From Bacteroidales bacterium (GTDB lineage Bacteria > Bacteroidota > Bacteroidia > Bacteroidales > Bacteroidaceae): 64,000 nt of DNA. The notes below the pieces were generated by a model. That model ran no database searches. It was not told where the DNA came from and saw only the letters and a program-made list of their open reading frames with translations. A program made the translations under genes and the position numbers. The stretch covers positions 5,277-69,276 of the forward strand of contig SUXT01000001.1 in assembly GCA_015060835.1 (NCBI GenBank), given 5' to 3'. Shown in pieces: positions 38,901 through 54,929 of the stretch (position 1 is its first letter; every line of letters begins with the position of its first letter).

Positions 38901-39859
38901 TTCATGACTTTTGGACAGAATTAGGTAATACATTTAAATACTCGTTTAAATTAAGTATTCCAATGTATACCGAAGAGGATGCTGCTTACTTAAATAAAGA
39001 AAGTGAAAAACATACTTTAATGAAGAAGTATGTACTTGATTCCGTAAAAAATGCTGTAATGAACTTATTGTCCACAATAGAGAATAAGTCAGATATTGTA
39101 TTGATAATGAGTGGTCGCAGTGTGTTGTATCCCGGTATAAACGGAGCTGTTGATGCAGCGTTGACATCTGCAGGCTGTGAAAAGATTGATAAGTGGAAAG
39201 GGTACTGTGATAAAAATGGAGTATTCGATTCGGAAAAGGTAAAATCTGCTGTAGCTATAGGAGCATGTTGGTATGCAATGTATAGCGACAGAATAAATAT
39301 GATTAACAATATAGTAACCACATCTTTTGGCTATATTGATTATGTTGAAGGTGAACAGAAATTTATTCCAATCGTGGAACGAAATAGCAGATATGACGCT
39401 AATGGCGAGTGTTCTGGCTTTGTTCAAACCATGGGTAGTACTCTTAGAACAGTGCGACTTGTTCAAATGCTAGGAATGAATTACGATGAAATATATTCTA
39501 CTCCCATCAAACACATGATGAATGTGCTTGATGAAGTACTTCCTCAACAGATTAACACATATGTCAACAAAGTAGAGATAACTGTTGATAATAAAAACAA
39601 CTTCTCATACACGATTTATGACGGTGTCAATGAAATAACAAAAATGAATAATCCTCATTCGCGTCTTGGCGACAACGATGTTAAGACTGAGATTGTAGAT
39701 GAAAACAGTTCAGCCTATGTTTATGCAACGCTTAACGAAAATGACTTGAATGTAAATAAGAATCAAGAGACTACATCGTCCGATGTCGAAACAACTCATG
39801 CAAATGAAGGTGCAACTAAAACAATAATACTTGAGAAAAATACAACAAAACGGTTCTAA
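35921..39859 (+). CDS. Giant bitopic membrane protein: exported N-terminal region (vWA-like fold without MIDAS?) - TM - cytoplasmic beta-rich region - Hsp70/actin-fold ATPase domain
   Basis: 1312 aa. N-terminal hydrophobic segment IQIYVLMIFLFIPSAGF. Internal TM LAMIFLSILIILSVGTILLYWLY followed by KKRGQNR. Hsp70 NBD motifs appear in order: MAFDPGTTGSCAAFG, AIVAVPNNYT..EMVDSVKRIGA, VYIVFDMGGATINATAF, GVGGDDIDYA, IVLIMSGRSVLYPG, AVAIGACWYA. Confidence 0.8.
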   Translation: MKIKGCFPLFKSNIIARIQIYVLMIFLFIPSAGFCVEDYYDRHIIIAVDQKAIRDYGDYSKARDSLFAAIKSFLRNDGKISGMNKTMSYISPGVYFDKETDKVSLFAFGIPGTDQYSYDDSPYARLKRSLRYDYSFNKISDSLIKSRAVYTKSGDLEKFLNSLKLVFYNDEIHKQKKQYGNCILSLSHYVDPLIINHIDASVKAREYYLFIVTDYTSGGGANDTGDIRRMEELLGMKKPNSKRNLSDFNTNVNNLISKYSRTEILKILPSGFGERDQVDQIQDFPIIKGKKLLLAGSECSTLFVASDIRLKQLELDEPFYNLQPSKITFAHSGDIVLEKIMFTIKDKKGKVLLNEIFDDSEQLKAMYNKTDKGYEIPAVNELNISNLAVGDSLFFDYVFYTKSSNENGANTVLPYVFVANKEYLVTDDVFVPRPQMSNSDLAMIFLSILIILSVGTILLYWLYKKRGQNRVVNLDFKIWPITNERFMEVKNKQVLKYDCWYWDGQRRDHNIRVTGNLNIEEKSWAKKFKYIVEFWIEDIDANADFSFRPSLQKREANGNVRDSRQWYPVQEDSDGTGNFSCDANVFISDGEKPSLTKVPNFSFDNILELKVKVRVKMVDNDGKFIKFVKISNSDTDCIEKVYSFIVKPKLENSNVWMAFDPGTTGSCAAFGVSALPTDSDDIFLAINRHESESGDIINDPLFPSRIRINNKSKRLFANTPAPAEQLIEGEDFDFGNKAEIFWKAKSSNCFQSIKKLLGYTNLQKIVDSQGRISEISGQDLAHLLVKGLYKHTKEYIESNANNFQNISSMFMKNGSFHPQRAIVAVPNNYTLVKIQEMVDSVKRIGAFNEVHYIYESESVMMTYIRSNWKLLFEQRDEQQEKVYIVFDMGGATINATAFKLNVYPDIVRGKANDISSIDVETISKIGYGVGGDDIDYAIIQLIYGIPTIKALIADVEKHQREHKTALIELARKIKLSWISSYNGSRKAGGITNNIHDFWTELGNTFKYSFKLSIPMYTEEDAAYLNKESEKHTLMKKYVLDSVKNAVMNLLSTIENKSDIVLIMSGRSVLYPGINGAVDAALTSAGCEKIDKWKGYCDKNGVFDSEKVKSAVAIGACWYAMYSDRINMINNIVTTSFGYIDYVEGEQKFIPIVERNSRYDANGECSGFVQTMGSTLRTVRLVQMLGMNYDEIYSTPIKHMMNVLDEVLPQQINTYVNKVEITVDNKNNFSYTIYDGVNEITKMNNPHSRLGDNDVKTEIVDENSSAYVYATLNENDLNVNKNQETTSSDVETTHANEGATKTIILEKNTTKRF

Positions 39860-39880
39860 ATTTATAAATTGAAGATTATT

Positions 39881-41968
39881 ATGAAAAGAGCAACTTTATA
39901 CTTTATTCTTATTATCTGTACCACATTTTGTTTTATATGTACAGCAAATGGTCGAAATGAGAATATTGAATTCAACCAAGAAGGTTGTAAATTAGAAAAT
40001 AATGGTGTACAATATTTTAAAATTAATGAAAATAGAGTCGTTTTTACCGGTGACGCTCTATATTTGAATGCTACAAAGAATGATAATATAACAATTAATA
40101 CGAATGATCCTAAAATAAAACCCATTCTTTCAGGCAATAAATATTATCGTGAGATAAATACAAATAATAAATTTGATATAGTAGTACTAAAAAAATACAA
40201 CAAACTAACTATTTACAACAAGAAGAAGAATAATAACGATACTATAAACTTAATTACTTTTGAAGCTTATGACGACACTTTACATCTAAAAGAAATAATT
40301 GAAACAGCGCAAATAAAATCTGACTTTCGTAAAGGTGGCTCTAAATCAAGAAGAGGTGCCGGCGACGATACAACTGATCAAAATGATACAATAATTCATC
40401 AGAATGATACAATAACTTTGGATTTATCATTAGGTAATCAATATTGGTCATTCGATGGAAGACTTATGTTGGGAACCGATACTATTGAAAATATTGTATT
40501 GAATAAAGATAAAAAAGATAATAAGATCAAGTTGCCGTTGAACACTTCTTTGCGTGACTCTCAAGAACTTTTCATCACAGGAAAACTTAAATATGGGGAA
40601 TTTGAACTTGATGCGAAGATTTTTAGTAAGAGATTGAGCGTCAAAGAGCCAATTGCCCTCTCTTTTTGGGGTAAAGCAAAAGAATGGTTCGTAGCTAAGC
40701 CTCTTTGGGTTGTAATTTTGTTAGGTGTCGCTGCGTTATTGTTGTTGGCCTTAATTGTATTCATAATCATTCTTGCTACAAAAAAATGCAGAAAGAAAGA
40801 GAATAATGATGACGGCAATTCGGATAATGGTAATAAAGGAACATCAAAAGATAATGGTAATAAAGGAACATCAAAGGATAATGGTAAAGCTCCTTTAAAT
40901 AAGGGAAAAAATAACGTTTCACCAAAACAGGAATCAGGAAAAGAAAAAAATGAAGCACCCACTTCCAATGAAGACGTTAAGTCTCCTCAGATAGCCGACA
41001 AGCTAAATGGAATAAGTGATAAACTTGTAGAAATAGAAAAGAAACTCAAAGAATCTACAAAATTCAACGATATTGAGAAAAGACTCAATGATATTGAGAC
41101 AAAGCTCAAAGACGACAGTAAATTCAAAAATATAGAAACAAGAATCAAGAGTATAGATGAAAAATTAGATGCGCCTAAAAAACTAAAAGAAACAGAAGCT
41201 GCTTTAGAAAAAACCAAAAAAGATTTGGAGAGTTCTAATAAAAAGAATACGGAACTTAGTTCAGATTTGTCAGTAGCTAAAGAAAACATTAGAACATTAG
41301 AAAAGGCTCAGGAGGTGTTTTCGTCCAGAATAACATATGTGCCTTTTGCTGAAGAGTATTGCAAGAAAATACAAAAACTGATTAGTGTTGCCGATCAAAT
41401 ATCTAAAGAGGCGAATGCATTGTATAGCTCTTCATCAATAGATGATCCTTGGCACATAATGAAGGCTATAACCAAATATAGTGTGGCTATATGTGGTATT
41501 GACATAGAGCAATTCTACACCGAAGTTAGAATGATAGGTAGCGGGCAGGTTGTTCTAAACGGTACGATGTTGTGCCAATATAATAAAGGAACCGATGAGA
41601 ATGAACTTAAAAATTCGACTAAGAACTATTTTTTCAGCACCTACCTAAGCCGATATATAGATGCTTTGGTCGTTTTCAATGAAACACTTATCGGTATGGA
41701 TAGATTGGTAAACGGTATTTCAAAAAGCGATGTTGCAAAATTCGTGCAATTCCGAGATAGAATTAACGAAATATTGTCCTCTATAGAAATAACTGTCAAT
41801 TCAGTGAAGTTGTTCGAGCCGGTAGGCCAAAAATTATATTTGCAGGCCGAATCAGGTTCTTATGGCAACTTTGAATCAGGTACAATCGTAGAAGTAGAGA
41901 ATTGTGTTGTATACCTGACAGGGTCTACAGCTCCATCTACCAAAATTAGAGTAAAAGTTCAAGAATGA
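39881..41968 (+). CDS. Bitopic membrane protein: exported N-domain - TM - low-complexity linker - coiled coil with tandem repeats - C-terminal globular domain
   Basis: The ATG at 39881 (MKRATLYFILIICTTFCFICTANG) is preferred over the TTG at 39869. TM LWVVILLGVAALLLLALIVFIIILAT followed by KKCRKKE. NGNKGTSKD occurs twice. It has repeated KFNDIEKRLNDIETKLKD-type heptad units. Confidence 0.75.
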   Translation: MKRATLYFILIICTTFCFICTANGRNENIEFNQEGCKLENNGVQYFKINENRVVFTGDALYLNATKNDNITINTNDPKIKPILSGNKYYREINTNNKFDIVVLKKYNKLTIYNKKKNNNDTINLITFEAYDDTLHLKEIIETAQIKSDFRKGGSKSRRGAGDDTTDQNDTIIHQNDTITLDLSLGNQYWSFDGRLMLGTDTIENIVLNKDKKDNKIKLPLNTSLRDSQELFITGKLKYGEFELDAKIFSKRLSVKEPIALSFWGKAKEWFVAKPLWVVILLGVAALLLLALIVFIIILATKKCRKKENNDDGNSDNGNKGTSKDNGNKGTSKDNGKAPLNKGKNNVSPKQESGKEKNEAPTSNEDVKSPQIADKLNGISDKLVEIEKKLKESTKFNDIEKRLNDIETKLKDDSKFKNIETRIKSIDEKLDAPKKLKETEAALEKTKKDLESSNKKNTELSSDLSVAKENIRTLEKAQEVFSSRITYVPFAEEYCKKIQKLISVADQISKEANALYSSSSIDDPWHIMKAITKYSVAICGIDIEQFYTEVRMIGSGQVVLNGTMLCQYNKGTDENELKNSTKNYFFSTYLSRYIDALVVFNETLIGMDRLVNGISKSDVAKFVQFRDRINEILSSIEITVNSVKLFEPVGQKLYLQAESGSYGNFESGTIVEVENCVVYLTGSTAPSTKIRVKVQE
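40823..40888 (+). repeat. 27-bp tandem repeat, 2.4 copies, in frame
   Basis: gataatggtaataaaggaacatcaaaa / gataatggtaataaaggaacatcaaag / gataatggtaaa. Confidence 0.85.
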
Positions 41969-41990: not shown

Positions 41991-43346
41991 ATGAGTATTA
42001 AAAAATTAATATTGATTTCAATCGGTGTTGTAATTTTAGCAAGTGTGGTAATTAGTATTATTACTCCTGAACCAAAATACAGCAACAACTTTAAGGCATC
42101 TTATCCCGAAGTGTTAAAGTTACAGACTTCAAACATTCCCGGAGCAGAGACTTCTGATGTGCCCCAAGTAGACGTTATTGTTGATTTCTCGGGAAGCATG
42201 AGGGGATTTATCGATTACAGTGGAGTGAACAATGGCGCTGTAGACAATAGTAATTTTATAAGTACCGTTTCGGACTTTCTTACAGAATACGAATCCAATT
42301 TTAAAGCCAAGAGTATAGTTTACTGTGGCACTAAGAAGTACGGAAAGGACGAATTCAGAGAGGGAATGCGCAACAAAGGGATTTTTCATGGCGGAACTAC
42401 TGAACTTGACAAACTTATAGAAAAAACGGTTTCGATGGCAAGTGACACTTCTGTCAGTGTGTTATTGTCAGATATGGTACTCTCTTATGGCCCTAACGTA
42501 ATTAGAACTTCAAAGAATCCCAGGTACAATAAAGATGCTCTTGATGGCCTCTCATCTGCAGTTAAAAGTTGTATTACAAAAGCAAAGGATAAGGGGCTCG
42601 ACATAATGTTAGTGCAGTATTTGTGCGATTTCAGTGGACAATACTATTACAATTATTTGGAGAACCTTCCCAATAACCGAAGCGACTACAATGGTGCTTT
42701 AATGAAAAACAGACCATACTATTTTATGCTAATCGGTAAAAAGAGGCACCTTGTAAATTTGTACGATAAGTGTGTGAAGAAAGCCGAGTATGTATACACT
42801 TCATTTGATGTAGCAGAAAATCCCAATGACAAAAAAGCGTTTTCTATAGCTGAAAAGAAAAACAAAAACGGCGTGAATTATTGGGAGCAAGGAACTGAAG
42901 AAACAGAATCTCCCGGAACATTCGTAACGAAACTTGATTTGGAGGGCGAGAAGAATGCTTTTGCAGTAAGATATGATAATTTTATCCTGCCTACATTTAT
43001 AAATGGTTGTGATATTGTGGTAAATACAGACTTTGGTCATATAGAAGATATGGTCTATGATGCAAATTCAAAGACTTTAACATATACCTACTGTTTACCT
43101 AATTTTGAAAAACTTAAAAATGCAGACAATATTGCATCTATTGATGTCATGTATAATAGTTCTGCAAATAAGTGTGATGCAATATCTCTTGACGACGATG
43201 TAAACATGGAACTTGCTAAACTGGAGGGAAAAACATGGTCGGTCAGCGCAGTGGTAAGCGCTATCGATGGAGCTTATTATGGCAAGAGAGGACGCGAGGC
43301 TTGTATAACAGTATCAAGAACAAAATTAATATTCAAGAAAATCTAA
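41991..43346 (+). CDS. N-terminally membrane-anchored von Willebrand factor A (vWA) domain protein with an intact MIDAS motif
   Basis: 451 aa. TM LILISIGVVILASVVISIITP. VDVIVDFSGSM is a DxSxS MIDAS motif, and VSVLLSDM is the later strand typical of vWA. The C-terminal roughly 200 aa is unassigned. Confidence 0.7.
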   Translation: MSIKKLILISIGVVILASVVISIITPEPKYSNNFKASYPEVLKLQTSNIPGAETSDVPQVDVIVDFSGSMRGFIDYSGVNNGAVDNSNFISTVSDFLTEYESNFKAKSIVYCGTKKYGKDEFREGMRNKGIFHGGTTELDKLIEKTVSMASDTSVSVLLSDMVLSYGPNVIRTSKNPRYNKDALDGLSSAVKSCITKAKDKGLDIMLVQYLCDFSGQYYYNYLENLPNNRSDYNGALMKNRPYYFMLIGKKRHLVNLYDKCVKKAEYVYTSFDVAENPNDKKAFSIAEKKNKNGVNYWEQGTEETESPGTFVTKLDLEGEKNAFAVRYDNFILPTFINGCDIVVNTDFGHIEDMVYDANSKTLTYTYCLPNFEKLKNADNIASIDVMYNSSANKCDAISLDDDVNMELAKLEGKTWSVSAVVSAIDGAYYGKRGREACITVSRTKLIFKKI

Positions 43347-43362: not shown

Positions 43363-43794
43363 ATGGAAACAATAAGACGATTTGCAGAATTTTTCTATGG
43401 GTTTTGTGTAGACATGAAACTTAAGTTATTTACACCTGCTCCTCAAGGTGATGATGGTTTAGCATGGTTGTTGATATTTTTACTTGGCTCCTCGGCGCTA
43501 TTTGCTGCAATTTATTATTTTGGGGTAGAAAGAGATGCAAGAAACGCAACACCTAAAAATTATTTGTCATTATATATCGCAGGTTATTTGACATTGGTCG
43601 CTGTTAATTTTGTGGGGCTTGCTTCGATAGCCAAGGATGGCGAACTCCCTTTAGTGGATATATTTTATGTATCATTGATTGATATCATTTATTATTCCAT
43701 TTTGTTTGAAATCCACTCATTATGGATGAAGGGATTATCAAAGAATTCCAAGTGTATAGATATTATATCAATATTGTTTAACAAGAATATATAA
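43363..43794 (+). CDS. Small polytopic membrane protein
   Basis: 143 aa with three to four hydrophobic segments. It is tightly packed in the operon, with 16-nt and 4-nt gaps. Confidence 0.65.
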   Translation: METIRRFAEFFYGFCVDMKLKLFTPAPQGDDGLAWLLIFLLGSSALFAAIYYFGVERDARNATPKNYLSLYIAGYLTLVAVNFVGLASIAKDGELPLVDIFYVSLIDIIYYSILFEIHSLWMKGLSKNSKCIDIISILFNKNI

Positions 43795-43798: not shown

Positions 43799-45388
43799 AT
43801 GAATATGATGAATAATTTATATGTATTTGCAATAGGTGGTAGTGGAGAGCGCGTAGTTAAATCTTTGGTTATGATGCTCACTACCGGAATGAAAATAGGA
43901 GCACAACGTATAAAACCGGTGTTTATTGACAACGATGTTGATTCTAAGGCGTTTAAAACATGTTGCGAACTTATAACGTATTATAATGCTACACCACAGT
44001 CGGATCACAAGATGGGTGCCAATACATTGTACCTTCAGGAGGACCAGGATTCTGCAACTTGGGGCAGTTTTTTCCATGTTCCAATAGACAAGCCTATTGT
44101 GCTCAATAAGGCAGGGGAGGCTATTGGCAATCTTCGAAATGTTATAGGGTATACCAGAGGAGAAACAGCTGCTCATAAATCAATTGAAGAGGAAATGAAT
44201 CTACTTTTCACTGATGACGATTTGAATATGCCGTTGAGTGTCGGTTTTGTTGGTAATCCCAATATAGGAAGTATAGTCTTGAATTCTCTTTCGTTGGATG
44301 GTGATGGTAGTACAGATTTTGGAAAAATTTTGGCTAATATCTCGGCTAATGATGGAGCTATAGTTATAGGTTCTCTTTTTGGTGGCACAGGAGCTGCCGG
44401 GCTTCCGTTGGTAATAAATAAATTAAAATCGTTGCCTCCGGCTAAAAAACCTATATTGGGTGGCATTGCTGTATTACCTTATTTTAATACAGATCAGCAA
44501 GGCGATAAGCATCCCGATCTTGATACAAAAAAATGGGATGTAAAATCCGGTTCCTTTGTCGCAAAAACTCGTGCCGCCTTGATGTACTATGATGATTATA
44601 TGAAGTATGATTATGACTGTTTATATTATGTCGGCAATAGTCAGGAACTGGATACATTCCATCATTGTGTCGGTGGTGAAAAACAGGATAATCCTTACCA
44701 TATCGTAGAAATGATGTCTGCACTCTCTGTTATTGATTTTTCTATGGCTACACATTTGGATAAAATAGAATATAAGTCTCCTATCTGGGGATTTACAGAC
44801 CAAAATAATTCGAATGTTTCAGGAATCTATAATTCTGATTTGGCAAAGTCTTTAGTTAAATTCAGAATGTTGAAAGAGATGTTCTATTCGTCGGGTGAGT
44901 CATTTTTGAAGTGGGCGATAGATATAAGGAAAGATTACTGTGATAGAACTGGGTTCAATGAGCCTTTCCGACTTTCGGTTTGCGGACAAAGCAGTGCAAA
45001 TTCACAAGCGTGGGGAATTGCCAATTTGTTTAGAGAATTTGATAAGTGGATGAGTGAACTCTCTTCTGATAGAGTAAGCAGACCATTTTTGCTTTTCAAT
45101 AGTTCGGCACAAAATGTAAACGGCGATAACATTACTAAAGAATTCTATTCTGAGCGTAAAGAGGACGAGGTAAATTTTGGTATTGCAAAATCTGAATTAA
45201 AAGGTTTTTTCAAGAAAACTCTTGCTGCTGTAAAAGCTGATATCGCAAATGAAATGCAGAATGCCTATAATCAACTTTACCCAGGAGGAATAAAACAAGC
45301 AGATACTGCGAAAACATTGTCTATTTTGTTGAAAATAATATCAAAGGCATTGGATAATGTGTTGGAAAAGAATTGTATAGAATTATAA
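43799..45388 (+). CDS. Divergent FtsZ/tubulin-superfamily GTPase-like protein
   Basis: 529 aa. LYVFAIGGSGERVVKSLVMM compares with FtsZ IGVGGGG.NAV. AIVIGSLFGGTGAAGLPLVINKL compares with the FtsZ/tubulin signature GGGTG(T/S)G. ILGGIAVLPYF compares with FtsZ VGVVTKPF. The three motifs occur in the correct order and spacing. Confidence 0.7.
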   Translation: MNMMNNLYVFAIGGSGERVVKSLVMMLTTGMKIGAQRIKPVFIDNDVDSKAFKTCCELITYYNATPQSDHKMGANTLYLQEDQDSATWGSFFHVPIDKPIVLNKAGEAIGNLRNVIGYTRGETAAHKSIEEEMNLLFTDDDLNMPLSVGFVGNPNIGSIVLNSLSLDGDGSTDFGKILANISANDGAIVIGSLFGGTGAAGLPLVINKLKSLPPAKKPILGGIAVLPYFNTDQQGDKHPDLDTKKWDVKSGSFVAKTRAALMYYDDYMKYDYDCLYYVGNSQELDTFHHCVGGEKQDNPYHIVEMMSALSVIDFSMATHLDKIEYKSPIWGFTDQNNSNVSGIYNSDLAKSLVKFRMLKEMFYSSGESFLKWAIDIRKDYCDRTGFNEPFRLSVCGQSSANSQAWGIANLFREFDKWMSELSSDRVSRPFLLFNSSAQNVNGDNITKEFYSERKEDEVNFGIAKSELKGFFKKTLAAVKADIANEMQNAYNQLYPGGIKQADTAKTLSILLKIISKALDNVLEKNCIEL

Positions 45389-45404
45389 AATTGGTTAGAC
45401 CATT

Positions 45405-48400
45405 ATGAATAAATTTGAATTTGGAATGAAAGCCGTACAACAAGATGGTTTAAACGGCGATTTTAAAATATACGATAGCAATTTGGGTGGCAATTATAAC
45501 CCCTATAATTCAACCTATTTCGATAGAGAGGAAAACAGAGTAGTTTGTCCAGATAATGGAAGGATAACATCTATACCTTCACCTTATGCTCGTATGCATA
45601 TAACAGACCTTGCATTTAGGGAAGCAAACAGTGGTAGTGCAAATGGTGAGCCGCCCATAGCTCTGTCTCTTGATTATAATATAGCATTGTCCCATTGTCT
45701 GGATATTTTCGAGATGTTGTTTTATTCAGATGCAGAAGACTTGGAAGAAAAGGGTGTTTCGGTAGAAAAGATAGATCTTGTAAGAACCAATACTACAAAT
45801 GTAGAGGAAAAGGCATTATTGAATGCTAACCCTAAACTTAAAGCGTATATTTCAACGTTGGATTTATATCGCGATGAATATGTGAGCGTTTTGGATCACA
45901 TCAGAAATGACAAACATGTAAATCAATATTTGTTTGATTTTAATTCGTTGTATCTGTTTAAATATAAAGGAAAGGTTTTTGCGTCAACATCGCCGCTTAC
46001 CGGATTCTTTGCTACAGCCAATTGTAACATAGGGGATCTGGTGATTAACGGTAACAATATTCTTAGCTCAAATCCTAATCATATAAGAGAAATTGGACAG
46101 CGCACATCAGAATTCCGTGAATTCATGTACTCTTTGTTGTTTCATACAGGTTTGTGTCATATATTTAAGAATTTGTTTATATATGTAAAGAATAGCTTGG
46201 ACGCAAATCAAATAGCAACCATAGACCAGAACCCGTTCCAAAATCAAAGGCAATACCTTAAGTTTAACATTGGCGGGCAACATTTGCTTCAAGTTAAAGA
46301 TAATCTGTATATCAGACCGGGCGGAATAGATTGTTCATATTTGAAATATTATCTTTATCTTGCCCCTCCTGTTGATTTTGCAATAACGGAACAGGATTAT
46401 GCTACAAAATTAAATGAACGCCAATTTAACGGTCAGTTGGTTTCGTGGTATGGTGTAAATGATATTTTGTCAGATGCGCTATTTGTTTTGACGTATGATA
46501 TAAATGACAATTATGTATCGGTGCCATACGTAGATATAAATAAAGATTGTAAGGCATACAAACGTTGTCTTTTACCAATAAAACGAGGAGCTCTTGACTT
46601 CTTTACAGTAGACGAGTTGTGTAACGGTTTGAGAATAGAGAAAAGGGATCATAGTAAATATGTAGCAACCCTTAAAATAACTTTGTTGAATGGTGGAACT
46701 ATAACATTGCGTCGTGAGTACACAGCCGGTGATGCTTGCTATCCTAATGGCAAGGTATTCCAAGGTGATGATATGAAGCCTTTTGCATTCGGTATTTATC
46801 CGTTTGTGAAGTCTACTCAATTTGCCAATATGTACAAAGTGTTATTCTATAATCATTTTGATAAATATTCACTTAAATTTTATAAAAAGGATGCAAATGG
46901 TATAAATCCATTGCTTGAAACAGAAACGAAAGTAAATAAGACTAATAACATCCATAACCAAGAATTTGGTGTCAATTGCGAGTATCACGACATCAATATA
47001 CAAACGAATATCCTTGAGTTTGCCGAAATTGAAGTTTCAGGATTAACATCGCTTATTATTCCCAATCTGCGCATGGTCGGGGAAGCCAATGATGGCGCAA
47101 GTATTGCAGTTGATCATAATACAGAAGTTACTGTGGCTATAGACTTGGGTACATCCAATACTTACGTTGCATATAGTCGCAGGCCTTTCGGTGGCGGTAC
47201 CATAGCTGAAAAAGATATTATTCCCATTTCGACGCATCATAGCGGTAATGTCGAATGGAATGAACTTACATTCATGAATAAAAAGTGTGAACAAGCAGAT
47301 TTGGCAACAGCACCGGAAAAGAATAGGGAAGATTTGTATTTGCGGGTAAGTGATTTCGATAATAAGCCCGTAGATACATGGCTATCTTCTCAGTTGAACG
47401 AATTTATTCCTTCACGCATTGATCCAAACGGTGATAATTATAGTTTCCCAATTCCGACTGTTATAAATTTCTTGCGCAGGAATTGTGGTCGCCCTCAATT
47501 CGATCCTAATGCCCAAGAATCTCCGTTGATAGATTTTGCTATACCTTTTGCATATTATGAGAGAGGTATAAGAACCGGAGGAAGTGGTGCGAATGTATAT
47601 GATTTGATAAGCAATGGAAGCGACTTTAAATGGTATGAAAAGCGCAATAATAAGGGTACTCTCGTTAAAAATGAAGTATTCGAGGCGGCTTTCAAGGCTT
47701 TCTTGTCTGAATTGATGTTCATCGTCCGTTGTCACTTGATTTGCAGTGGGCATGATTTGACGCTATGCAAAATAATCTGGTCGTATCCGTTATCATTCTC
47801 GAGTTCATTGCGTGATGAATACGATAGAGCGTGGAAAGAGGCATACAAAAAATATATTAACCCAACAGTCGCCAATAATATTGATGATTATGTTAAGTAT
47901 ACAAATGAATCCCGTTCTCCTATCTATGCGTGTATAAATAATCCGGGAGCTATAAACCATTTGACAGTTTTGTTGGATATTGGTGGTGGCTCAACCGATG
48001 TAATAGGATACAAAAATAATAATGTCCAATTCGTTACTTCATTCGGTTTTGCCGGCAACGCCTTGTATTTGGCATCAGGTATGAATACAGTCTCAGAAGG
48101 AGATCAAATGGACGGTACATTACTAAAGAGGTTTGTTATAAAACAGAGAATTTTCAGTGGTATAGGTTCCAACCCCAATTCTGCCGAAATGGAGGAGAAA
48201 AAAATCAGTACTTCTGATTCTATATGCACTCTTATGAATTATGGTTTCGCTAAGGCAGAATATGATTTTGTGAAGATTTTTCAAAATGATTCAGCGCAAT
48301 TTATGTTGCAACTGCATAATGCAGCCATAATATATCATGTGGCTCAGTTGTGCAAAATTTATTCTCCTGATGAACTTCCTGATACAATATATCTGACCGG

Positions 48401-48938
48401 TAATGGCTCTAAACAATTTGAACTTAATATAGCCAAGGATTCTATGATAAGAAACATCTTCGCTGCTGTTTATGAAGATAGAACAATAAATGAAATTGAC
48501 AAAATAAATATATGCAGCAATCCTAAACCTAAGGCAGCAACTGTAAATGGTGCATTGTTGGGCTTGAGTCAAGGTACATTGGCTACAAACAGGGAGTCTG
48601 CTACTAATAGAGTGGTAATGCTTGGTGATTGCGCCCACTCTTATAGAGTTGACCCGATTGTTGATTATGCCGTTGTTGATAATAAAGACGGTTACAAGGA
48701 AGCTGTTAAGGAAAATGTCAATAAGTTCTTTGAATACTTCTATGATAAGGTATATACAACAGCAAGTCCTGTAAGAACTATAGAACATGTGAAGGAGGCT
48801 ATTGACTATGTATCTGGCGATCCGAAATTGAATCTACCTGATAATGGTATTATTTCAGATTCGTTCTTCTTCCAATACATAGCTTTGGTTATGCAGAAAT
48901 TGTCAATGGACTTGGTTAAAGCAGGTTATGCCAAGTAA
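45405..48938 (+). CDS. Large soluble protein: unassigned roughly 560-aa N-region plus C-terminal Hsp70/actin-fold ATPase domain
   Basis: 1177 aa. VTVAIDLGTSNTYVAY (phosphate-1), IIWSYPLSF, LTVLLDIGGGSTDVIGY (phosphate-2), TIYLTGNGSKQF and ATVNGALLG (adenosine region) are present. I saw no TM segment. Confidence 0.75.
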   Translation: MNKFEFGMKAVQQDGLNGDFKIYDSNLGGNYNPYNSTYFDREENRVVCPDNGRITSIPSPYARMHITDLAFREANSGSANGEPPIALSLDYNIALSHCLDIFEMLFYSDAEDLEEKGVSVEKIDLVRTNTTNVEEKALLNANPKLKAYISTLDLYRDEYVSVLDHIRNDKHVNQYLFDFNSLYLFKYKGKVFASTSPLTGFFATANCNIGDLVINGNNILSSNPNHIREIGQRTSEFREFMYSLLFHTGLCHIFKNLFIYVKNSLDANQIATIDQNPFQNQRQYLKFNIGGQHLLQVKDNLYIRPGGIDCSYLKYYLYLAPPVDFAITEQDYATKLNERQFNGQLVSWYGVNDILSDALFVLTYDINDNYVSVPYVDINKDCKAYKRCLLPIKRGALDFFTVDELCNGLRIEKRDHSKYVATLKITLLNGGTITLRREYTAGDACYPNGKVFQGDDMKPFAFGIYPFVKSTQFANMYKVLFYNHFDKYSLKFYKKDANGINPLLETETKVNKTNNIHNQEFGVNCEYHDINIQTNILEFAEIEVSGLTSLIIPNLRMVGEANDGASIAVDHNTEVTVAIDLGTSNTYVAYSRRPFGGGTIAEKDIIPISTHHSGNVEWNELTFMNKKCEQADLATAPEKNREDLYLRVSDFDNKPVDTWLSSQLNEFIPSRIDPNGDNYSFPIPTVINFLRRNCGRPQFDPNAQESPLIDFAIPFAYYERGIRTGGSGANVYDLISNGSDFKWYEKRNNKGTLVKNEVFEAAFKAFLSELMFIVRCHLICSGHDLTLCKIIWSYPLSFSSSLRDEYDRAWKEAYKKYINPTVANNIDDYVKYTNESRSPIYACINNPGAINHLTVLLDIGGGSTDVIGYKNNNVQFVTSFGFAGNALYLASGMNTVSEGDQMDGTLLKRFVIKQRIFSGIGSNPNSAEMEEKKISTSDSICTLMNYGFAKAEYDFVKIFQNDSAQFMLQLHNAAIIYHVAQLCKIYSPDELPDTIYLTGNGSKQFELNIAKDSMIRNIFAAVYEDRTINEIDKINICSNPKPKAATVNGALLGLSQGTLATNRESATNRVVMLGDCAHSYRVDPIVDYAVVDNKDGYKEAVKENVNKFFEYFYDKVYTTASPVRTIEHVKEAIDYVSGDPKLNLPDNGIISDSFFFQYIALVMQKLSMDLVKAGYAK

Positions 48939-49001: not shown

Positions 49002-49628
49002 ATGGGAATGTTTATTAATGAGAATGAAACTGCAGAAAAGCAATTTAGAGATATTGATAAAACTCTGAATGGCTTGTTTGATAGAATTGATTCGGTTGAG
49101 GAGAAACTTGAAACTTTAAAGCTTGTGTTGGGCAAACTGTCTGACAGTTTGCAAGAGATGTCGTTATCTATAAAAACGGCATTAAATCAAGCGTGTGATG
49201 TAAATGAGAGTATAGAGACATCATGCACAATTCCTGCTTCTGAAGAAAAAGAGCCAATACACGAATGTGCCCCTGAAGAGAAAGTCGGTGCAGACGTAAA
49301 AGTCGAAAGTGAGTTTGAAATACGCTTTTTGGGTGCACCTTCGGGTAGTGGTTTTGAAGTGATGAACGAAAGAACCGAAAAAAGTATTTCTACCTTATAT
49401 ATACTTGAAATTGACAGAGCCAATAAGATAGCATATTTCTATCCTAATAAAGAAAATATTGCCAAACTTGTATATGATAAGCCGCATAATCTTGAACCCG
49501 TATGCGACATTGAAGGGGTGGTTGATTCTTTGTGTGACTTGTATATAAGTAAAGATGATTATGGTGTTTTGCATCTTGAAGCTCCGGATTATTGGAAAGT
49601 TCAAAAAAAATGTCTTATTAAATGTTAG
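49002..49628 (+). CDS. Hypothetical protein, N-terminal coiled coil
   Basis: 208 aa. It has a heptad-like N-terminus (LFDRIDSVEEKLETLKLVLGKL), an acidic linker and a small C-terminal domain. Confidence 0.6.
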   Translation: MGMFINENETAEKQFRDIDKTLNGLFDRIDSVEEKLETLKLVLGKLSDSLQEMSLSIKTALNQACDVNESIETSCTIPASEEKEPIHECAPEEKVGADVKVESEFEIRFLGAPSGSGFEVMNERTEKSISTLYILEIDRANKIAYFYPNKENIAKLVYDKPHNLEPVCDIEGVVDSLCDLYISKDDYGVLHLEAPDYWKVQKKCLIKC

Positions 49629-49632: not shown

Positions 49633-50712
49633 ATGAAGAAAATATTAATTTACATTTGTGTTCTTATTTTGGTGGTAGTTATGATCTGGCCGGAGCAGAA
49701 TCTGAAAATAGCTTCTGTAGTGGATGGTAATACCGTAGAATTGAATAATGGAACAACTGTGCATCTTATAGGTGTTAATAGTACTAACGAAGGTAAAATC
49801 GAACTGGAGGGATTGATGGGAAAAAGTTTGTTGTTGGTTCCCGATAAAACTGCATTCTTTAATCCCGATCTTATTGACAAAACCTCTACGGTATATGCTT
49901 ACGCTGTTGTTGAAGATGACAATGTGTGCATAAACGCATCGTTACTCAAAAATCGCTATTCTAATCTCGAAGAGAACTCATATTTGAATGATAGTCTGAA
50001 TTCATTCAGAAAATATGCCGAGTCAGGGCGAAGAGCTTTGACACCTGAGCCTACCCCAACTCCTAAACCAGTCATAGATTATCAGGAGGAGGAGATATAT
50101 CTCGATCCGTATATACCATCTTCTGAACGCAAGCATAGTGCATGGTATAATGATGGAAGTATGAATTTGGAGATGCTTGAGGAGGCTTGTGACTTTAATT
50201 TGCCATATACAAAAAAATTTGCAAATGAACTTGCTGCACGTTCACCTGGTAGCTTCAATCCAGGACAGATATGTGAAATTTTTGCATATTGCTATAAGAA
50301 ATGGAGTTATGTCAACGATCCCGCAGATGTTGAATATGTCGCTCGTGCATCAGAAACAATTCATGGTTCATTAATTGGTGATTGCGACGATTACGCAGTT
50401 TTGATGGCGTCATGTATACTTGCAGTTGGAGGTCGCGCTTGTATAAACACTGGTTATAATTCCAGTGGTGGACATGCTTTTACCGAGGTTGATATATCCA
50501 ATTTTGATGAAAATGAAGTCTATAGTGTTATATGTAAATATTTCCCTGAGTATAATATACAAAATCTGAATTACAGAATAGACGGACAACACAAGTGGTT
50601 GAATCTGGATTGGCAAACTCAATATCCCGGAGGTAAATATTATGATTGTTCTTATAAGTGGGACAGTTATCCTTATGAAAAAGGCAAGTGGGTTTGGAAA
50701 AAATTGAGATAA
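49633..50712 (+). CDS. Membrane-anchored/exported protein: SNase-like OB-fold (catalytic residues apparently not conserved) plus transglutaminase-like cysteine protease domain
   Basis: 359 aa. N-terminal hydrophobic segment ILIYICVLILVVVMIW. VVDGNTVELNNGTTVHLIGVNS resembles the thermonuclease DGDT...RL.GIDAPE strand pattern without the Arg/Asp/Glu. GDCDDYAVLMASCILAVGGRA ... GGHAFTEVD fits the transglutaminase-core Cys/His arrangement. Confidence 0.6.
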   Translation: MKKILIYICVLILVVVMIWPEQNLKIASVVDGNTVELNNGTTVHLIGVNSTNEGKIELEGLMGKSLLLVPDKTAFFNPDLIDKTSTVYAYAVVEDDNVCINASLLKNRYSNLEENSYLNDSLNSFRKYAESGRRALTPEPTPTPKPVIDYQEEEIYLDPYIPSSERKHSAWYNDGSMNLEMLEEACDFNLPYTKKFANELAARSPGSFNPGQICEIFAYCYKKWSYVNDPADVEYVARASETIHGSLIGDCDDYAVLMASCILAVGGRACINTGYNSSGGHAFTEVDISNFDENEVYSVICKYFPEYNIQNLNYRIDGQHKWLNLDWQTQYPGGKYYDCSYKWDSYPYEKGKWVWKKLR

Positions 50713-51228: not shown

Positions 51229-52266
51229 ATGAATTTTATGAGAAAAATTGTTTCGTTTGGATTACTTGTCGTATCTGCAATGTTTTTTATGGCAGCTGTC
51301 CCGTTTTCTAAATGCGGAGTAAAAAAGAATTATGCAAAGATAGAACGTTTGACAAATAATGACTCTGTATATTTTGTTCCCCATGAAATAAAGAAGACAG
51401 ATGTTGTCGATTTATTAAAAAGAGAGACATTATATAATATAACAGAAACATTTGCCCCCTTGCATTATGCAGATGCAGTATTTTTGGATTCCGTAGTATT
51501 GAGTACATTGGCATCCAAACCATTGGAATGTACAAAAACATGGAGATATAAGACTATAGATGCTTTGTATTACTCTCCGGATGTGTATGTAGAAGGATTT
51601 GTTAAAACAAGTAAGGGGTTGAGTCCTCGTTATTGCTTGTATATAGATACTAAATCGAGAAAAGCACACATTACTTTGCTTAAAAATGACAAAGTTTATA
51701 CATCTGATGTATATTCGCAACAGGATTCTGTAAATATTGATGCGGTAATAGAAATTTTTAAAAACTATTCAATAAAGAGTGATATGAAGGAAACAAAACA
51801 AGAAGATGTTCTTTTCCCGCCATCTCCCGACAAAAATAGTTCCACATATTTAAAAGATAAAACTTCGGAGTATATATTTAATGCTATTAAGAATTGGGAA
51901 TTATCAAGCGTGATGTTGATTGATCCTATGGGTAACAAGGGAAAACTGATGCATGGTTTTACTATATTTGAATCATGCGACCGTATTTCTACTGAAAATT
52001 CAAAGAGAATAAAGGATATTCTTGTGGCTTCATCGAGTTATAAACAAAGTGATGTCGTTAAAAATTCAACATTCTTACCCGATTATGCGTGTCGTTTTTC
52101 CAAGGATGGTGAATATGTAGATGTTCTTGTTGCTTTATATTGTGATGATATTAAAATATATCATAAGGATAAAGAGTACACATTGGATATATCTCCCTCA
52201 CATAAAGCGTTTGCGAACTATATCCAAACGATATTCCCTAATGATAAATACATAAAAAAATATTGA
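51229..52266 (+). CDS. Exported hypothetical protein
   Basis: 345 aa. N-terminal hydrophobic segment IVSFGLLVVSAMFFMAAV. I recognise no motif. Confidence 0.6.
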   Translation: MNFMRKIVSFGLLVVSAMFFMAAVPFSKCGVKKNYAKIERLTNNDSVYFVPHEIKKTDVVDLLKRETLYNITETFAPLHYADAVFLDSVVLSTLASKPLECTKTWRYKTIDALYYSPDVYVEGFVKTSKGLSPRYCLYIDTKSRKAHITLLKNDKVYTSDVYSQQDSVNIDAVIEIFKNYSIKSDMKETKQEDVLFPPSPDKNSSTYLKDKTSEYIFNAIKNWELSSVMLIDPMGNKGKLMHGFTIFESCDRISTENSKRIKDILVASSSYKQSDVVKNSTFLPDYACRFSKDGEYVDVLVALYCDDIKIYHKDKEYTLDISPSHKAFANYIQTIFPNDKYIKKY

Positions 52267-52268
52267 TT

Positions 52269-53033
52269 ATGTTGCGAAAATACATTGTTTTGGCCTTATT
52301 GGTGTTTAGTATACCATCGTGTTATTCTCAAAAGCTTCATGCGTTGTTCTATGTAAACGAACAGGAACAGGGTCGTGAGGTGGATAGAAGAGCCGATATG
52401 AAGAATATGTACAATTTTTGGGGTGATGTTGCCAATAATATTGGTTACAAATATTCTCCTGTCAAGTGTACGCCGAATACATTTACAGCAAGTAATATAA
52501 ATTCGAAGATTAACGGATTGAATGTAGAACGGAATGACATTGTTGTATTTTATTATAGTGGGCACGGGTATAACGATGAGTCGGATATTTGGCCGACTTT
52601 GAATCTGTTGGACAAAAATTATAGGCAAATTGACATAATGAAGAAACTGAAAAATGTCTCTCGTAATGCTAAGTTGGTATTGTGTATTGCTGATTGCTGC
52701 AACAAGCAGTTGACATCTGCTTATGATTTTACAGCGTCGTATGATGCTATGGATGATAATGATAATGCTCTGAAAAATCTCTTTACAGGTTTTAAAGGGA
52801 AAAAATCGATAATGATGTCTGCCAGCAAGCAAGGACAATATTCCTGGAGTCATTTGCAGTATGGGGCTTACTATGGAAATTGTTTTAGGCAAGTTCTTTC
52901 CCGCTTGTCTACAACACATCCAACTTGGGATGTAGTGCTCAATGATATATCAAAATTGACATTAAAATATACGGAAGGTAGACAAAAGCCTCAGTTTAAT
53001 ATTACTCAATCTGGAGACCCTTTTGAAGATTAA
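52269..53033 (+). CDS. Caspase-like (peptidase C14 fold) lipoprotein
   Basis: The ATG at 52269 is preferred over the TTG at 52263. Lipobox FSIPSC. His-Cys dyad context VVFYYSGHGY and LVLCIADCCN. Confidence 0.7.
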   Translation: MLRKYIVLALLVFSIPSCYSQKLHALFYVNEQEQGREVDRRADMKNMYNFWGDVANNIGYKYSPVKCTPNTFTASNINSKINGLNVERNDIVVFYYSGHGYNDESDIWPTLNLLDKNYRQIDIMKKLKNVSRNAKLVLCIADCCNKQLTSAYDFTASYDAMDDNDNALKNLFTGFKGKKSIMMSASKQGQYSWSHLQYGAYYGNCFRQVLSRLSTTHPTWDVVLNDISKLTLKYTEGRQKPQFNITQSGDPFED

Positions 53034-53036
53034 TAT

Positions 53037-54929
53037 ATGATTGTGATTAAGATGGACCGTATAAAATATAATCTAATTCTTTGTTTGTTTTTGTGTGTAG
53101 CATTCTGTAGTGGTGTTTACGCTCAAAGCAAAACATTGCACTTTATTTATTTTGCAGATACAAACGATTCTGAAGTCGGAAAAAGCTCGGAAGAGGCAAA
53201 TAGGTATTTTATAAATAATTTTATACCTATGGTTAAACAGAATACAACTTTGAACGTGAAAACATATTGTTTCTATGGGCAGGATTTCCAAAAGAATAAA
53301 CTGAATAGTGTTATTAATGATTTGCAAACAAACAGCAATGATGCTATATTCTTTTATTATACAGGTCATGGATTTAATCAGGACAGTAATGACTTTCCCA
53401 CGTTGACGTTAGGTTTGCGAGGAGATGCTTTATCTTCGAGAACAAAACCCTTGTTGGATATTTATAATACGTTAAGAGGCAAACCGCATCGCTTGTTAAT
53501 GGTAATAGCAGAAGCTTGTAATGCGGTATATGGAAGTAGATCAAATGCAGGAAACTACACTGGAAGTTATGATGCTTTTGAGGGCGATAATACAAAATTA
53601 CAAACTTTATTTGCGGAATCAAGCGGCGATTATTTGATGTCAAGTAGCAAAAAGGGGCAAAGATCATTCTGTCCGACCGGCGGATTGGGATATTTTACAA
53701 GAGGATTCAAGGATGCATTAGATGAAAGAACAAGTAGCTTTTCTGTGTCCTCATTTTTAAATAAAATAGCCATTAATACAACAAAATATGCTGGCGATTA
53801 CGCTGCGGAAGAACAGCATCCTCAATGGTTGTCAGGAGTGTATTCTGATGGTAAGTCTAAAAAACCAAGTTTGACTCCTTCGGGAAGCACAAAAAAGGCA
53901 TCCGGTGAATTTGATGATGTCAATATCGAAACATCGGGCGAGAATCTTGTTGTTAAGGTTACTTTTTCCATAAGTAATATGAAAGACAAGGATGGAAGAG
54001 TAGTGTGCTATTTTTATGATGCTGATGGCAATGAATTGAAAGATTTGAACTCTTTATATACAACTACTGATGGTTATGTCTCTGTCGGTAAAGATATAAA
54101 ACCTAGTTATGAGAATTCTACTTATACCGATTTGGAGGTTACTATTCCAAAATCAGAACTGCATCAGAGTGGCGTAAATGCAAGAATTTTGAAAGTACAA
54201 GTTCTTGTGTGGGATAAATCCAAATCGGAATCAACTGAGTTGTTTAGAAGTGGGTATGAGTCTTTTAGTTTTATTCCAAGTGAATCATATTTGAAAATAG
54301 ATGGTACAACGTCTGATAAAACTGTGCAATTTGGAGAAAACGGCGGAGAGGAGACCTTTGATGTAAATACCAGCGCTGATTCATTTGAAACTTGGGGTGT
54401 GCCTTCATGGTGTAAAATATCAAAAAAGACATCAACTTCGTTTACATTGGTTTGCGAATCGAATCCTAACTCAGATGATAGGTCGGATTATATGAAAGTT
54501 AAAGCTGCGGGAAAAGAAATCAGAATTGACATTTCACAGGATGCAAACAGTGGCCCCTCTGCCGAAATTGAAAACATTTGGGTTGACCATAATCAAATGA
54601 ATGGTTGGTATAAAGGAATGTGTATCCATGTAAAGTTTTCAATAAATGGAATGAAAGGTAGGCGTTGTAATGTTATTGCTGCATTTTATTACGGTGATAA
54701 TTCTACTCCTTTGAGAAATCAATATGGTGGTAATCTTACATACAATGCTTATGGAAATGTAAACCATGATCCTGGGCGTTACGATGATTTTACTTTATTC
54801 GTGCCGTATTCAGGCTTGTATTTAGTAGGTTCCGGAATGGCTAATTTTTCTTTTGACATAATAATCAATGACGATAGCGGAAATAAATTGGCAAGACATA
54901 ATAATATACAATTTACATACTGTCAGTAA
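53037..54929 (+). CDS. Exported caspase-like domain protein with C-terminal beta-sandwich and BACON-like domains
   Basis: 630 aa with a signal peptide. IFFYYTGHGF and LLMVIAEACNA form the His/Cys dyad. A later segment GGEETFDVNTSADSFETWGVPSWCKISKKTSTSFTLVCESNPNSDDRSDYMKVKAAGKEIRIDISQ resembles BACON. Confidence 0.7.
   Translation: MIVIKMDRIKYNLILCLFLCVAFCSGVYAQSKTLHFIYFADTNDSEVGKSSEEANRYFINNFIPMVKQNTTLNVKTYCFYGQDFQKNKLNSVINDLQTNSNDAIFFYYTGHGFNQDSNDFPTLTLGLRGDALSSRTKPLLDIYNTLRGKPHRLLMVIAEACNAVYGSRSNAGNYTGSYDAFEGDNTKLQTLFAESSGDYLMSSSKKGQRSFCPTGGLGYFTRGFKDALDERTSSFSVSSFLNKIAINTTKYAGDYAAEEQHPQWLSGVYSDGKSKKPSLTPSGSTKKASGEFDDVNIETSGENLVVKVTFSISNMKDKDGRVVCYFYDADGNELKDLNSLYTTTDGYVSVGKDIKPSYENSTYTDLEVTIPKSELHQSGVNARILKVQVLVWDKSKSESTELFRSGYESFSFIPSESYLKIDGTTSDKTVQFGENGGEETFDVNTSADSFETWGVPSWCKISKKTSTSFTLVCESNPNSDDRSDYMKVKAAGKEIRIDISQDANSGPSAEIENIWVDHNQMNGWYKGMCIHVKFSINGMKGRRCNVIAAFYYGDNSTPLRNQYGGNLTYNAYGNVNHDPGRYDDFTLFVPYSGLYLVGSGMANFSFDIIINDDSGNKLARHNNIQFTYCQ

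Follow-up and report, generated by a model that had tools for sequence, protein, structure and literature searches.

What kind of protein is the product of gene F, and with what does it work? The question is raised by an open reading frame in the 64,000-nucleotide stretch of Bacteroidales DNA analysed here (the window, in which all coordinates are positions), the sixth in a compact plus-strand operon, 35921-50712, whose eight genes we letter A to H and whose intergenic gaps measure 4-63 nucleotides. The first-pass annotation of this DNA had seen two Hsp70-fold proteins in the operon, one of them F, and had proposed that they form a heteromeric pair or filament which an adjacent FtsZ-like protein could regulate. 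Our results suggest a different arrangement, in which F is an ATPase with an actin-like predicted fold, belongs to a large family that has gone without annotation, and has as its partner the tubulin/FtsZ-like product of gene E, directly upstream.

The reading frame of F and the phosphate-1, phosphate-2 and adenosine motifs noted in it (Table 1) were confirmed. In the ASKHA superfamily phosphate-1 has the general form DxGxxN/T, phosphate-2 the form DxGGGT/S and adenosine a GGxS-like form, and the actin fold consists of two RNase-H-like lobes around a cleft for the nucleotide. The three motifs are invariant in an alignment of 49 F sequences, 36-63% identical to the window protein, in which D580, G582, T583, N585, D858, G860-G862, S863, D865 and G999-S1002 do not vary. 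Motif mapping added connect-1, with its glutamate, and connect-2 (PK..AT..GA), and all five motifs are invariant within the family and kept in superfamily members ~24% identical. The presence of all five elements of the ASKHA scheme, which in its classical form is said to go back to Bork, Sander and Valencia in 1992, therefore points to residues ~572-1056 being an ATPase of actin fold whose active site is apparently intact. An AlphaFold2 model of full-length F, with the 49-sequence alignment as input, agrees with this assignment (mean predicted local distance difference test score (pLDDT) 87.7, predicted template-modelling score (pTM) 0.81). Searched with Foldseek against the PDB, the model gave 259 matches at E<=1e-3, with MreB at the top (E 4.8e-8, template-modelling (TM) score ~0.5-0.56 normalised on the target) and, after it, Arp2/3 and actin, ParM and the nucleotide-binding domain (NBD) of DnaK (E 5e-8 to 1e-6; DnaK NBD ~1e-6). 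Phosphate-1 and phosphate-2 of F lie 278 residues apart, and the Foldseek alignments use 510-540 columns to span MreB chains of 320-335 residues; the actin fold of F must therefore hold large insertions. By predicted fold and by motifs, then, residues ~572-1056 are an ATPase of the ASKHA superfamily, and the earlier assignment of the C-terminal half to that actin/Hsp70 superfamily, large insertions included, stands.

Placing F within a known family was less successful. Pfam returned for F just a sub-threshold FtsA match (E 0.005 over 32 residues), NCBIfam and PADLOC returned nothing meaningful, and searches of PDB sequences with F or the family profile gave weak matches to exopolyphosphatase and MreB around phosphate-2 and no more, so that direct assignment, tried with single sequences and with profiles, yielded sub-threshold ASKHA matches alone. 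Among 13 F orthologues the sub-threshold Pfam matches were to FtsA (PF14450) in 11 (best E 3.7e-5), to Ppx-GppA in nine and to MreB_Mbl in three (best 0.0046). Membership of the MreB, FtsA or ParM families was rejected, the FtsA and MreB_Mbl matches all lying below the gathering score. A relation to SrfB (PF07520), a large bacterial protein of a size similar to that of F, had been put forward for testing and is dropped, as no Pfam scan matched it, whether for F at E<=0.1, for 13 C-terminal orthologues at E<=1 or for seven distant members at E<=0.01.

The case against Hsp70 is of the same kind. PF00012 (HSP70) has zero matches in F and in the 13 orthologues at E<=1, and the E. coli DnaK NBD aligns with the F profile over 19 columns at phosphate-1 only, at a probability of 28% (typing errors in the DnaK query could only lower the score). 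No substrate-binding beta-domain or lid was seen after the ATPase domain, where ~120 mostly helical residues follow connect-2. Hsp70 chains with substrate-binding-domain residues (5obu, 7kru, 5tky) reach target-normalised TM scores of 0.30-0.38 against F, and NBD-only chains (6w6e_I, 3cqx_A) 0.48-0.56. F is thus not an Hsp70 by sequence or predicted architecture, and it lies outside Hsp70, MreB, FtsA, ParM and SrfB as these families are defined by sequence. Of the two Hsp70-fold proteins first proposed, one is upheld, for the DnaK NBD aligns with the profile of gene A over 217 columns (probability 94.4%, E 8.5e-8) and A also matches HscA (TIGR01991, E 3.6e-4), whereas F is nearer to MreB, actin and ParM.

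The ~560-570 residues before the ATPase domain had been described as unassigned and free of transmembrane segments, and both points hold. F has no hydrophobic segment of transmembrane quality (maximum 19-residue Kyte-Doolittle mean 1.45), and residues 1-570 have no significant match in Pfam, NCBIfam, PADLOC or PDB sequences with single sequences or profiles; when profiles of the N-terminal region were run against Pfam and against PDB sequences, no consistent match came back. Residues 1-565 were also modelled on their own (pLDDT 89.8, pTM 0.85), and this model gave no fold assignment either, the Foldseek matches being marginal, generic ones of immunoglobulin (Ig) type to the beta-rich part only: the best were E 8.4e-4 in the PDB (RAGE VC1) and 6.6e-4 in BFVD (viral Ig-like proteins), with a query TM score of 0.13. 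These matches are placed on residues ~409-558 because of their size and secondary structure, and the alpha/beta part (residues ~56-408) has no fold match in PDB or BFVD. Neither sequence, profile nor Foldseek search matched an enzyme family, and as far as sequence and model go the N-terminal region is not a known enzyme. Of the two outcomes named in advance as speaking against the first reading, a well-known enzyme family in this region and C-terminal motifs that fail to model as an actin-like fold, neither was observed. The region is conserved nonetheless within the superfamily, whose signature opens the alpha/beta domain; the form SIPSP[YF]A and the S..LD..E motif are also kept in members ~24% identical. 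Near the C-terminus, an FF..Y..L.M motif is kept across the 49-sequence alignment.

How widely F is distributed depends on how far from the window protein one looks. The close clade is rare, with 11 loci among 185,579 species-representative genomes, all of them in Bacteroidales metagenome-assembled genomes (MAGs) bar one 2.2-kb contig. That contig, in an Erysipelothrix rhusiopathiae MAG, codes at 5-973 for a C-terminal fragment of an F homologue (L015, 33% identity) and is most likely a mis-binned Bacteroidales contig. A total of 166 full-length homologues, of 1160-1300 residues, were collected; a Pfam domain was found in 0 of the 166, and the few that are named are from Bacteroidales. A hidden Markov model built only on the N-terminal region and run on 1.84 billion representative proteins, with clusters formed at 50% identity, reached 701 clusters at E<=1e-3 (503 of them at E<=1e-10), almost all 1100-1250 residues long; F therefore sits in a large superfamily whose architecture is fixed. 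On this sequence evidence F is the founding member of a large unannotated superfamily of soluble proteins of ~1150-1250 residues. The family also extends to cultured bacteria: tblastn led to a 1158-residue protein of Prevotella sp. oral taxon 299 F0039 that aligns end to end with the F profile (hhalign E 4.4e-49), and a search with this protein found at least 785 clusters, the best 120 of which are 60-65% identical across Prevotella and Hoylesella and are all called 'hypothetical protein'. A phage or plasmid origin of F was considered and rejected, as there was no phage or viral-contig match and the only plasmid match to the family is the 1.77-Mb secondary replicon of Prevotella sp. F0039. One divergent relative (P0203, 1443 residues) has degenerate phosphate-1, phosphate-2 and adenosine motifs, lacks the connect-1 Glu and carries a C-terminal CHAT peptidase (E 7.2e-11); judging from its sequence, this is probably an adaptor of pseudo-ATPase type with an effector fused to it.

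The most constant feature of the F loci is the gene before F. The product of E has a T1-like AIGGSGER and the T4/tubulin signature GGTGAAG, both invariant, as well as a match to the CetZ T4 loop. Pfam sees it only faintly: Tubulin is sub-threshold in 12 of 13 E orthologues (E 0.006 for window E against PF00091), and Tubulin_2 (PF13809) is sub-threshold in three of the 13 (best 0.065). We sampled twelve close-clade loci, five distant ones (L016, L017, L018, L020 and L021), Prevotella F0039 (L022) and Hoylesella oralis (L023), and in every independent context a tubulin-like reading frame of 479-546 residues, recognised as an E homologue or by a weak Tubulin/Tubulin_2 match, stands directly upstream of F. 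In some genomes the two genes are one. In the 1611-residue protein P0226, residues 1-416 match the E profile (hhalign E 1.3e-39) and, with 28.2 bits, clear the Pfam Tubulin_2 gathering score of 27, while residues 534-1610 match the full F profile (E 5.5e-54); the F-profile alignment begins at column 55, a linker standing in place of residues 1-55 of F. P0135 is a second such fusion, closer than P0226, and a search with P0226 gave 69 fusion clusters of 1490-1694 residues, down to 25% identity, several with PF13809 and one from a Paludibacteraceae MAG. Genes of C-like and D-like size are still found upstream of the fusions. By Rosetta-stone logic, the natural E::F fusions argue strongly, if indirectly, for E and F working as a physical pair. 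The suggestion of an adjacent FtsZ-like regulator was right as to the FtsZ-like character of E and too modest as to its part, since E appears from these comparisons as the constant, sometimes covalently fused partner of F.

Two membrane proteins complete the set that does not vary. The product of C has a complete metal-ion-dependent adhesion site (MIDAS) pattern, D65-x-S67-x-S69, T137, D161, in which D65, S67, S69 and D161 are invariant and T137 nearly so. VWA_2 is sub-threshold in three of 11 orthologues and there is an ITIH1 MIDAS match, so the vWA call rests on the motif. Genes C, D, E and F occur in all sampled loci, the distant C and D being judged by gene size and position. L020 and the Prevotellaceae operons L022 and L023 lack genes A, B and H; in L022 and L023 a minimal six-gene operon, C-D-E-F-G-X, codes for proteins of ~499-513, 147-148, 514-537, 1156-1158, 186-190 and 274-280 residues. 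With C-D-E-F present throughout and A absent from the minimal systems, C-D-E-F is taken to be the core and A an accessory. The idea of a duplicated, heteromeric Hsp70 pair of A and F as the core of the system is therefore abandoned; in addition, neither BLASTP nor hhalign detected any relationship between A and F, or between the N-terminal region of F and A.

Table 1. Features of the F locus in the window (aa, amino acids; nt, nucleotides; domain and membrane assignments are predictions).
Feature	Position (nt)	Strand	Residues	Description
Gene F	45405..48938	+	1177 aa	ATG start; soluble; N-terminal domain, beta-sandwich region, actin-fold ATPase, helical C-terminal extension
F, leader	45405..45569	+	1-55	poorly conserved, low confidence; pLDDT 56-66 in both models
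F, alpha/beta domain	45570..46628	+	56-408	family-specific; pLDDT mostly >90
F, superfamily signature	45570-45599		56-65	SIPSPYARMH, at start of alpha/beta domain
F, S-x-x-LD-x-x-E motif			96-103	
F, all-beta region	46629..47078	+	409-558	probably Ig-like beta-sandwich domain(s); DSSP strands E409-E553
F, ATPase domain	47118..48572	+	572-1056	actin-like (ASKHA), from Foldseek and motifs
F, phosphate-1	47139-47162	+	579-586	IDLGTSNT; motif mapping
F, connect-1	47904-47921	+	834-839	NESRSP, with Glu E835; motif mapping
F, phosphate-2	47973-48002	+	857-866	LDIGGGSTDV; motif mapping
F, adenosine	48393-48416	+	997-1004	LTGNGSKQ; motif mapping
F, connect-2	48519-48554	+	1039-1050	NPKPKAATVNGA; motif mapping
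F, C-terminal extension	48573..48935	+	1057-1177	~120 aa, conserved, mostly helical; DSSP H1097-1116, H1126-1136, H1154-1172; pLDDT ~80-95
Gene E	43799..45388	+	529 aa	divergent tubulin/FtsZ-like GTPase; stop 16 nt before F start
Gene C	41991..43346	+	451 aa	N-terminal transmembrane helix 6-24; vWA-like domain, predicted extracytoplasmic
Gene D	43363..43794	+	143 aa	three transmembrane helices by hydropathy; core component
Gene A	35921..39859	+	1312 aa	bitopic; transmembrane 18-36 and 441-459; extracytoplasmic ~37-440; cytoplasmic Hsp70-type NBD
Gene B	39869..41968	+	699 aa	bitopic accessory; transmembrane 8-26 and 283-301; cytoplasmic low-complexity/coiled-coil region, conserved C-terminal domain
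B, tandem duplication	40823-40876			27 nt, perfect register
Gene G	49002..49628	+	208 aa	soluble coiled-coil protein; C-terminal ~100 aa conserved
Gene H	49633..50712	+	359 aa	N-terminally anchored or secreted; transglutaminase-like (papain-fold); GDCDDYA and GGHAF motifs
Genes I, J, K, L	51229..55353	+		variable block after 516-nt gap; all with signal or lipoprotein-type N-termini
Gene I	within 51229..55353	+	345 aa	
Gene J	52263-53033	+		caspase C14, lipoprotein-like
Gene K	53037-54929	+		caspase C14 and BACON
Gene L	54976-55353	+	125 aa	last island gene; lipoprotein-like N-terminus, Cys/His/Gly-rich C-terminus (CSKCSCSGYWGYKH...CGHGPEKHG)
Low-GC island	~35.5-56 kb			holds operon A-H
Imperfect direct repeat	35510-35550 and 35595-35635			41 nt, 76% identical, 85 nt apart
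TATATTTG element	35869-35884			~37 nt before A start codon

The remaining genes of the operon are more changeable. Orthologues of B, which has weak coiled-coil-type library matches, vary between ~565 and 984 residues and conserve the C-terminal ~250 residues only; the tandem duplication in window B, in its low-complexity cytoplasmic linker, gives the peptide DNGNKGTSK two times over. A gene of 186-226 residues, the size range of G, follows F in most loci. H scores 24.4 bits with Pfam Transglut_core, above the gathering score of 23, and its place after F is conserved in L016, L017, L021 and the window's own clade. Its N-terminal stretch, VVDGNTVELNNGTTVHLIGV, presumably resembles staphylococcal-nuclease/OB-type sequences, and a standalone SNase-domain gene lies downstream of a fused E::F gene in L025.

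The operon of the window lies in an island, bordered by MetH, SmpB and a Yip1-domain gene at one end and by a sodium:dicarboxylate symporter at the other, whose GC content is 0.33-0.37, against 0.41-0.51 in the flanks. We take this composition as a sign that the window's copy was acquired horizontally; as for an integration signature, the window holds neither a tRNA nor a tmRNA, and the island is not flanked by att-like repeats. The 455-nucleotide intergenic region upstream of A contains the direct repeat and the TATATTTG element, which may be the promoter and operator of the operon. The -7 promoter consensus in Bacteroidetes is TAnnTTTG, which TATATTTG fits.

Downstream of the operon, J and K match Peptidase_C14 (1.2e-11 and 1.5e-7) and BACON is matched at 3.3e-6; L has no Pfam match. 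Exported caspase-like proteins, as J and K are predicted to be, beside a cytoplasmic core of nucleoside triphosphatases (NTPases) are unusual. What occupies this downstream position differs by locus and includes C14 with BACON, PrsW with BACON, CHAT with TPR, trypsin, M54, Asp protease, serpin, SNase, Endonuclease_NS, AAA_15/21 and FGE-sulfatase. L017, for example, has CHAT with TPR, C14, M54 and AAA_15/21, while L020 and L026 have trypsin.

We favour, with moderate confidence, the view that F and E are the cytoplasmic two-NTPase module of a membrane-associated core with C and D, and that this module controls variable peptidase-type modules as a nucleoside triphosphate (NTP)-gated stress or conflict response. 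Such a role is favoured because a constant core meets a variable periphery, because a CHAT fusion exists and because of the island location. Kaur, Burroughs, Iyer and Aravind (2020; PMC7159879) described NTP-dependent conflict systems in which a constant core is combined with variable peptidases, and the pattern of the F loci mirrors that logic. The role and the direction of signalling that we infer would run as follows. ATP binding and hydrolysis by F and GTP binding by E would drive an assembly or a conformational switch of E and F, joined at the inner membrane as a heteromer or a co-polymer, in formal analogy to the tethering of FtsZ by FtsA and without orthology to it. This assembly could be coupled to events at the outer face through C, a membrane-anchored, MIDAS-bearing vWA-like protein that would face outwards, and the small three-helix protein D; in the window's clade the Hsp70-like A, the coiled-coil proteins B and G and the transglutaminase-like H would be added to this core, A and B also taking part in the coupling. 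The output would most likely be control of the downstream, mostly exported, peptidase-type modules, here the two caspase-like lipoproteins. A stronger version, which we offer tentatively and consider doubtful, is that E and F, one of tubulin fold and the other of actin fold, make up a hitherto unrecognised and obligate heteromeric machine, perhaps a co-polymer, that is Bacteroidales-specific, genus-wide in Prevotella and mobile elsewhere, and that couples GTP and ATP turnover to an outward vWA-MIDAS sensor or effector. If this were true, E-F would rank as a third kind of cytoskeletal pairing in bacteria, besides FtsZ-FtsA, serving envelope remodelling or acting as an assembly-based trigger of exported caspase-like and other peptidases.

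Several observations weigh against the favoured view of F and E. PADLOC gave no defence-model match for any of the eight proteins A-H, so that a known defence system was rejected, and the family was not found in phage or viral-contig collections. J and K, predicted exported lipoproteins beyond a 516-nucleotide gap, may be unrelated neighbours. The case for E-F contact is built from fusion and synteny and is indirect. The ~570-residue N-terminal region of F and the insertion between phosphate-1 and phosphate-2 could block longitudinal contacts of the actin type. Finally, the Prevotellaceae operon, 60-65% identical across species and without an obvious effector, looks like a vertically inherited cellular function and not like a conflict system that is mobile.

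This last point leads to the best of the other explanations, a housekeeping machine for the cytoskeleton or for membrane remodelling, in which E would form GTP-dependent filaments, F would be an FtsA-like adaptor, C and D would be anchors and the peptidase genes would be incidental. The process served could be one of the envelope, for example outer-membrane vesicle formation, control of cell shape or assembly of surface structures. We regard this as possible, though not probable. It agrees well with the situation in Prevotellaceae, where the minimal C-D-E-F(-G-X) operon stands in the same MatE/RmuC/LMWPc neighbourhood in two genera, with F at 9001-12471 in Hoylesella oralis (L023), where an ABC/MacB efflux cluster is inserted in the neighbourhood, and at 12060-15536 in Prevotella sp. 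F0039 (L022); the shared neighbourhood indicates vertical inheritance. MreB as the best fold match of F and the zero count from PADLOC also suit it, and membrane remodelling was proposed for FtsZl1-vWA operons by Makarova and Koonin (2010; PMC2875224). The window's copy, however, belongs to a rare clade and sits in an island of low GC, the loci outside Prevotellaceae repeatedly have different peptidase, nuclease or inhibitor genes immediately downstream of the operon, and a CHAT-fused, motif-degenerate F paralogue exists. Moreover, the hosts presumably retain canonical FtsZ, FtsA and MreB.

The other two explanations are much less likely than either the NTP-gated response or the housekeeping machine. 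In the first, which we consider improbable, F would be a non-polymerising chaperone or unfoldase in the style of Hsp70 that remodels a client (E, or A and B by their cytoplasmic tails) by ATP-driven closure of its lobes, with the N-terminal domain and Ig-like region as a client- or adaptor-binding module in place of the Hsp70 substrate-binding domain. The DnaK NBD is indeed among the significant fold matches of F, the operon already has a true Hsp70-type NBD in A, and in the DO-GTPase conflict systems tubulins are accompanied by HSP70-family proteins (PMC7159879); yet MreB, actin and ParM rank above Hsp70, the failure of PF00012 and the restriction of the DnaK alignment to phosphate-1 apply here as well, and the cassette contains no substrate-binding domain, DnaJ or GrpE. 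That F is a metabolic enzyme of the ASKHA class, whether a kinase of sugars or acids or a phosphatase of Ppx/GppA type, whose N-terminal extension is regulatory and whose tubulin-like neighbour is there by coincidence, is very improbable, as the sub-threshold Ppx-GppA, Hydantoinase_A and EutA matches that recommend it span 30-100 residues around DIGGGSTD and never reach curated thresholds, while the whole-domain fold matches are MreB, actin, ParM and Hsp70, the gene context holds no metabolic genes, and the tubulin-like linkage is universal in the sampled loci, fusions included.

The cytoskeleton has two universal engines, the actin-fold and the tubulin-fold NTPases, whose direct cooperation in bacteria has its textbook example in FtsA-FtsZ. 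The F locus points to a second, independent pairing of the two, strictly syntenic, fused in 69 clusters and part of what would be a complex that spans the membrane and includes a vWA protein; Bacteroidales of the gut and mouth appear to possess an undescribed machine, actin-like plus tubulin-like, that is associated with the membrane. The family, at least 700 clusters at 50% identity, is without representation in Pfam, NCBIfam or the PDB, includes an N-terminal domain of ~350 residues with no detectable fold relative in the PDB, and is abundant in Prevotella and Hoylesella, major taxa of the human mouth and gut and of the rumen. Cultured strains carry it, and the hypothesis is therefore directly testable by genetics and biochemistry. 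F would supply the missing constant partner for the FtsZl1-vWA operons noted in 2010, and the F/E core would extend the set of NTPase cores found beside caspase, CHAT and trypsin-type modules. What is new here is the protein family and its N-terminal domain; the ASKHA fold and the theme of tubulin-like, vWA and transmembrane proteins are already known. Our search of the literature met no description of the F family, of the E-F pairing or of an actin-like/tubulin-like/vWA system in Bacteroidetes, and the related reports are the two cited above (PMC2875224, PMC7159879).

Comparison with known systems places F between several of them. With the NBDs of Hsp70, DnaK and HscA, F shares the ASKHA fold, in Foldseek matches that are significant but lower-ranked, whereas PF00012 does not match it, neither a substrate-binding domain nor a lid is present, and it lacks partners of the J-protein or GrpE kind; in this operon it is A that has the Hsp70-type NBD. 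With MreB, FtsA and ParM, it has in common the two-lobed fold with phosphate-1, connect-1, phosphate-2, adenosine and connect-2 elements, and, as with FtsA, its gene adjoins that of a tubulin-superfamily GTPase. F is, however, ~3.5 times larger than these proteins, with a ~570-residue N-terminal region without a known counterpart, the 278-residue spacing and the C-terminal extension of ~120 residues.

At the level of the operon, the FtsZl1/Tubulin_2 (PF13809)-vWA operons (PMC2875224) share with the F loci a divergent tubulin-like GTPase, a MIDAS vWA protein, lineage-specific transmembrane proteins and a patchy distribution. As described by Makarova and Koonin, these operons also contain a P-loop GTPase, protein kinases and OmpA-family proteins, and FtsZl1 consists of an N-terminal GTPase, a long coiled coil and a helical C-terminal domain. 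By Pfam, A-H have no P-loop GTPase, kinase or OmpA domain, and E, of 529 residues, matched no Pfam coiled-coil family in a general Pfam scan, made without a dedicated coiled-coil prediction; conversely, the text of PMC2875224 makes no mention of HSP70, DnaK, FtsA or MreB, that is, of an actin-fold partner. The DO-GTPase/GAP1-N2 systems (PMC7159879) resemble the F loci in joining a constant NTPase core and tubulin-family, HSP70-family, vWA and transmembrane parts to variable peptidase-type partners (caspase, trypsin, FGE-sulfatase-type), although in that report tubulin with vWA and HSP70 with GrpE are separate themes, in Firmicutes and Actinobacteria. The F cassette was ruled out as a DO-GTPase system, as none of A-H has a Walker A motif and hence there is no P-loop; nor does Pfam find GAP1 or an FNIII-repeat family in it, the hosts are Bacteroidales, and the actin-fold protein is of a different family.

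There remains the FtsA-FtsZ pair of the divisome. Orthology is lacking, E and F being extremely divergent and provided with extra domains, and membrane attachment would be by way of separate transmembrane proteins. E and F are fused in one lineage; a fusion of FtsA with FtsZ is not known. Even so, an actin-fold ATPase encoded beside a tubulin-fold GTPase, with its place, a proposed one for E-F, at the inner membrane, is common to both, and FtsA-FtsZ is the nearest functional analogy to E-F.

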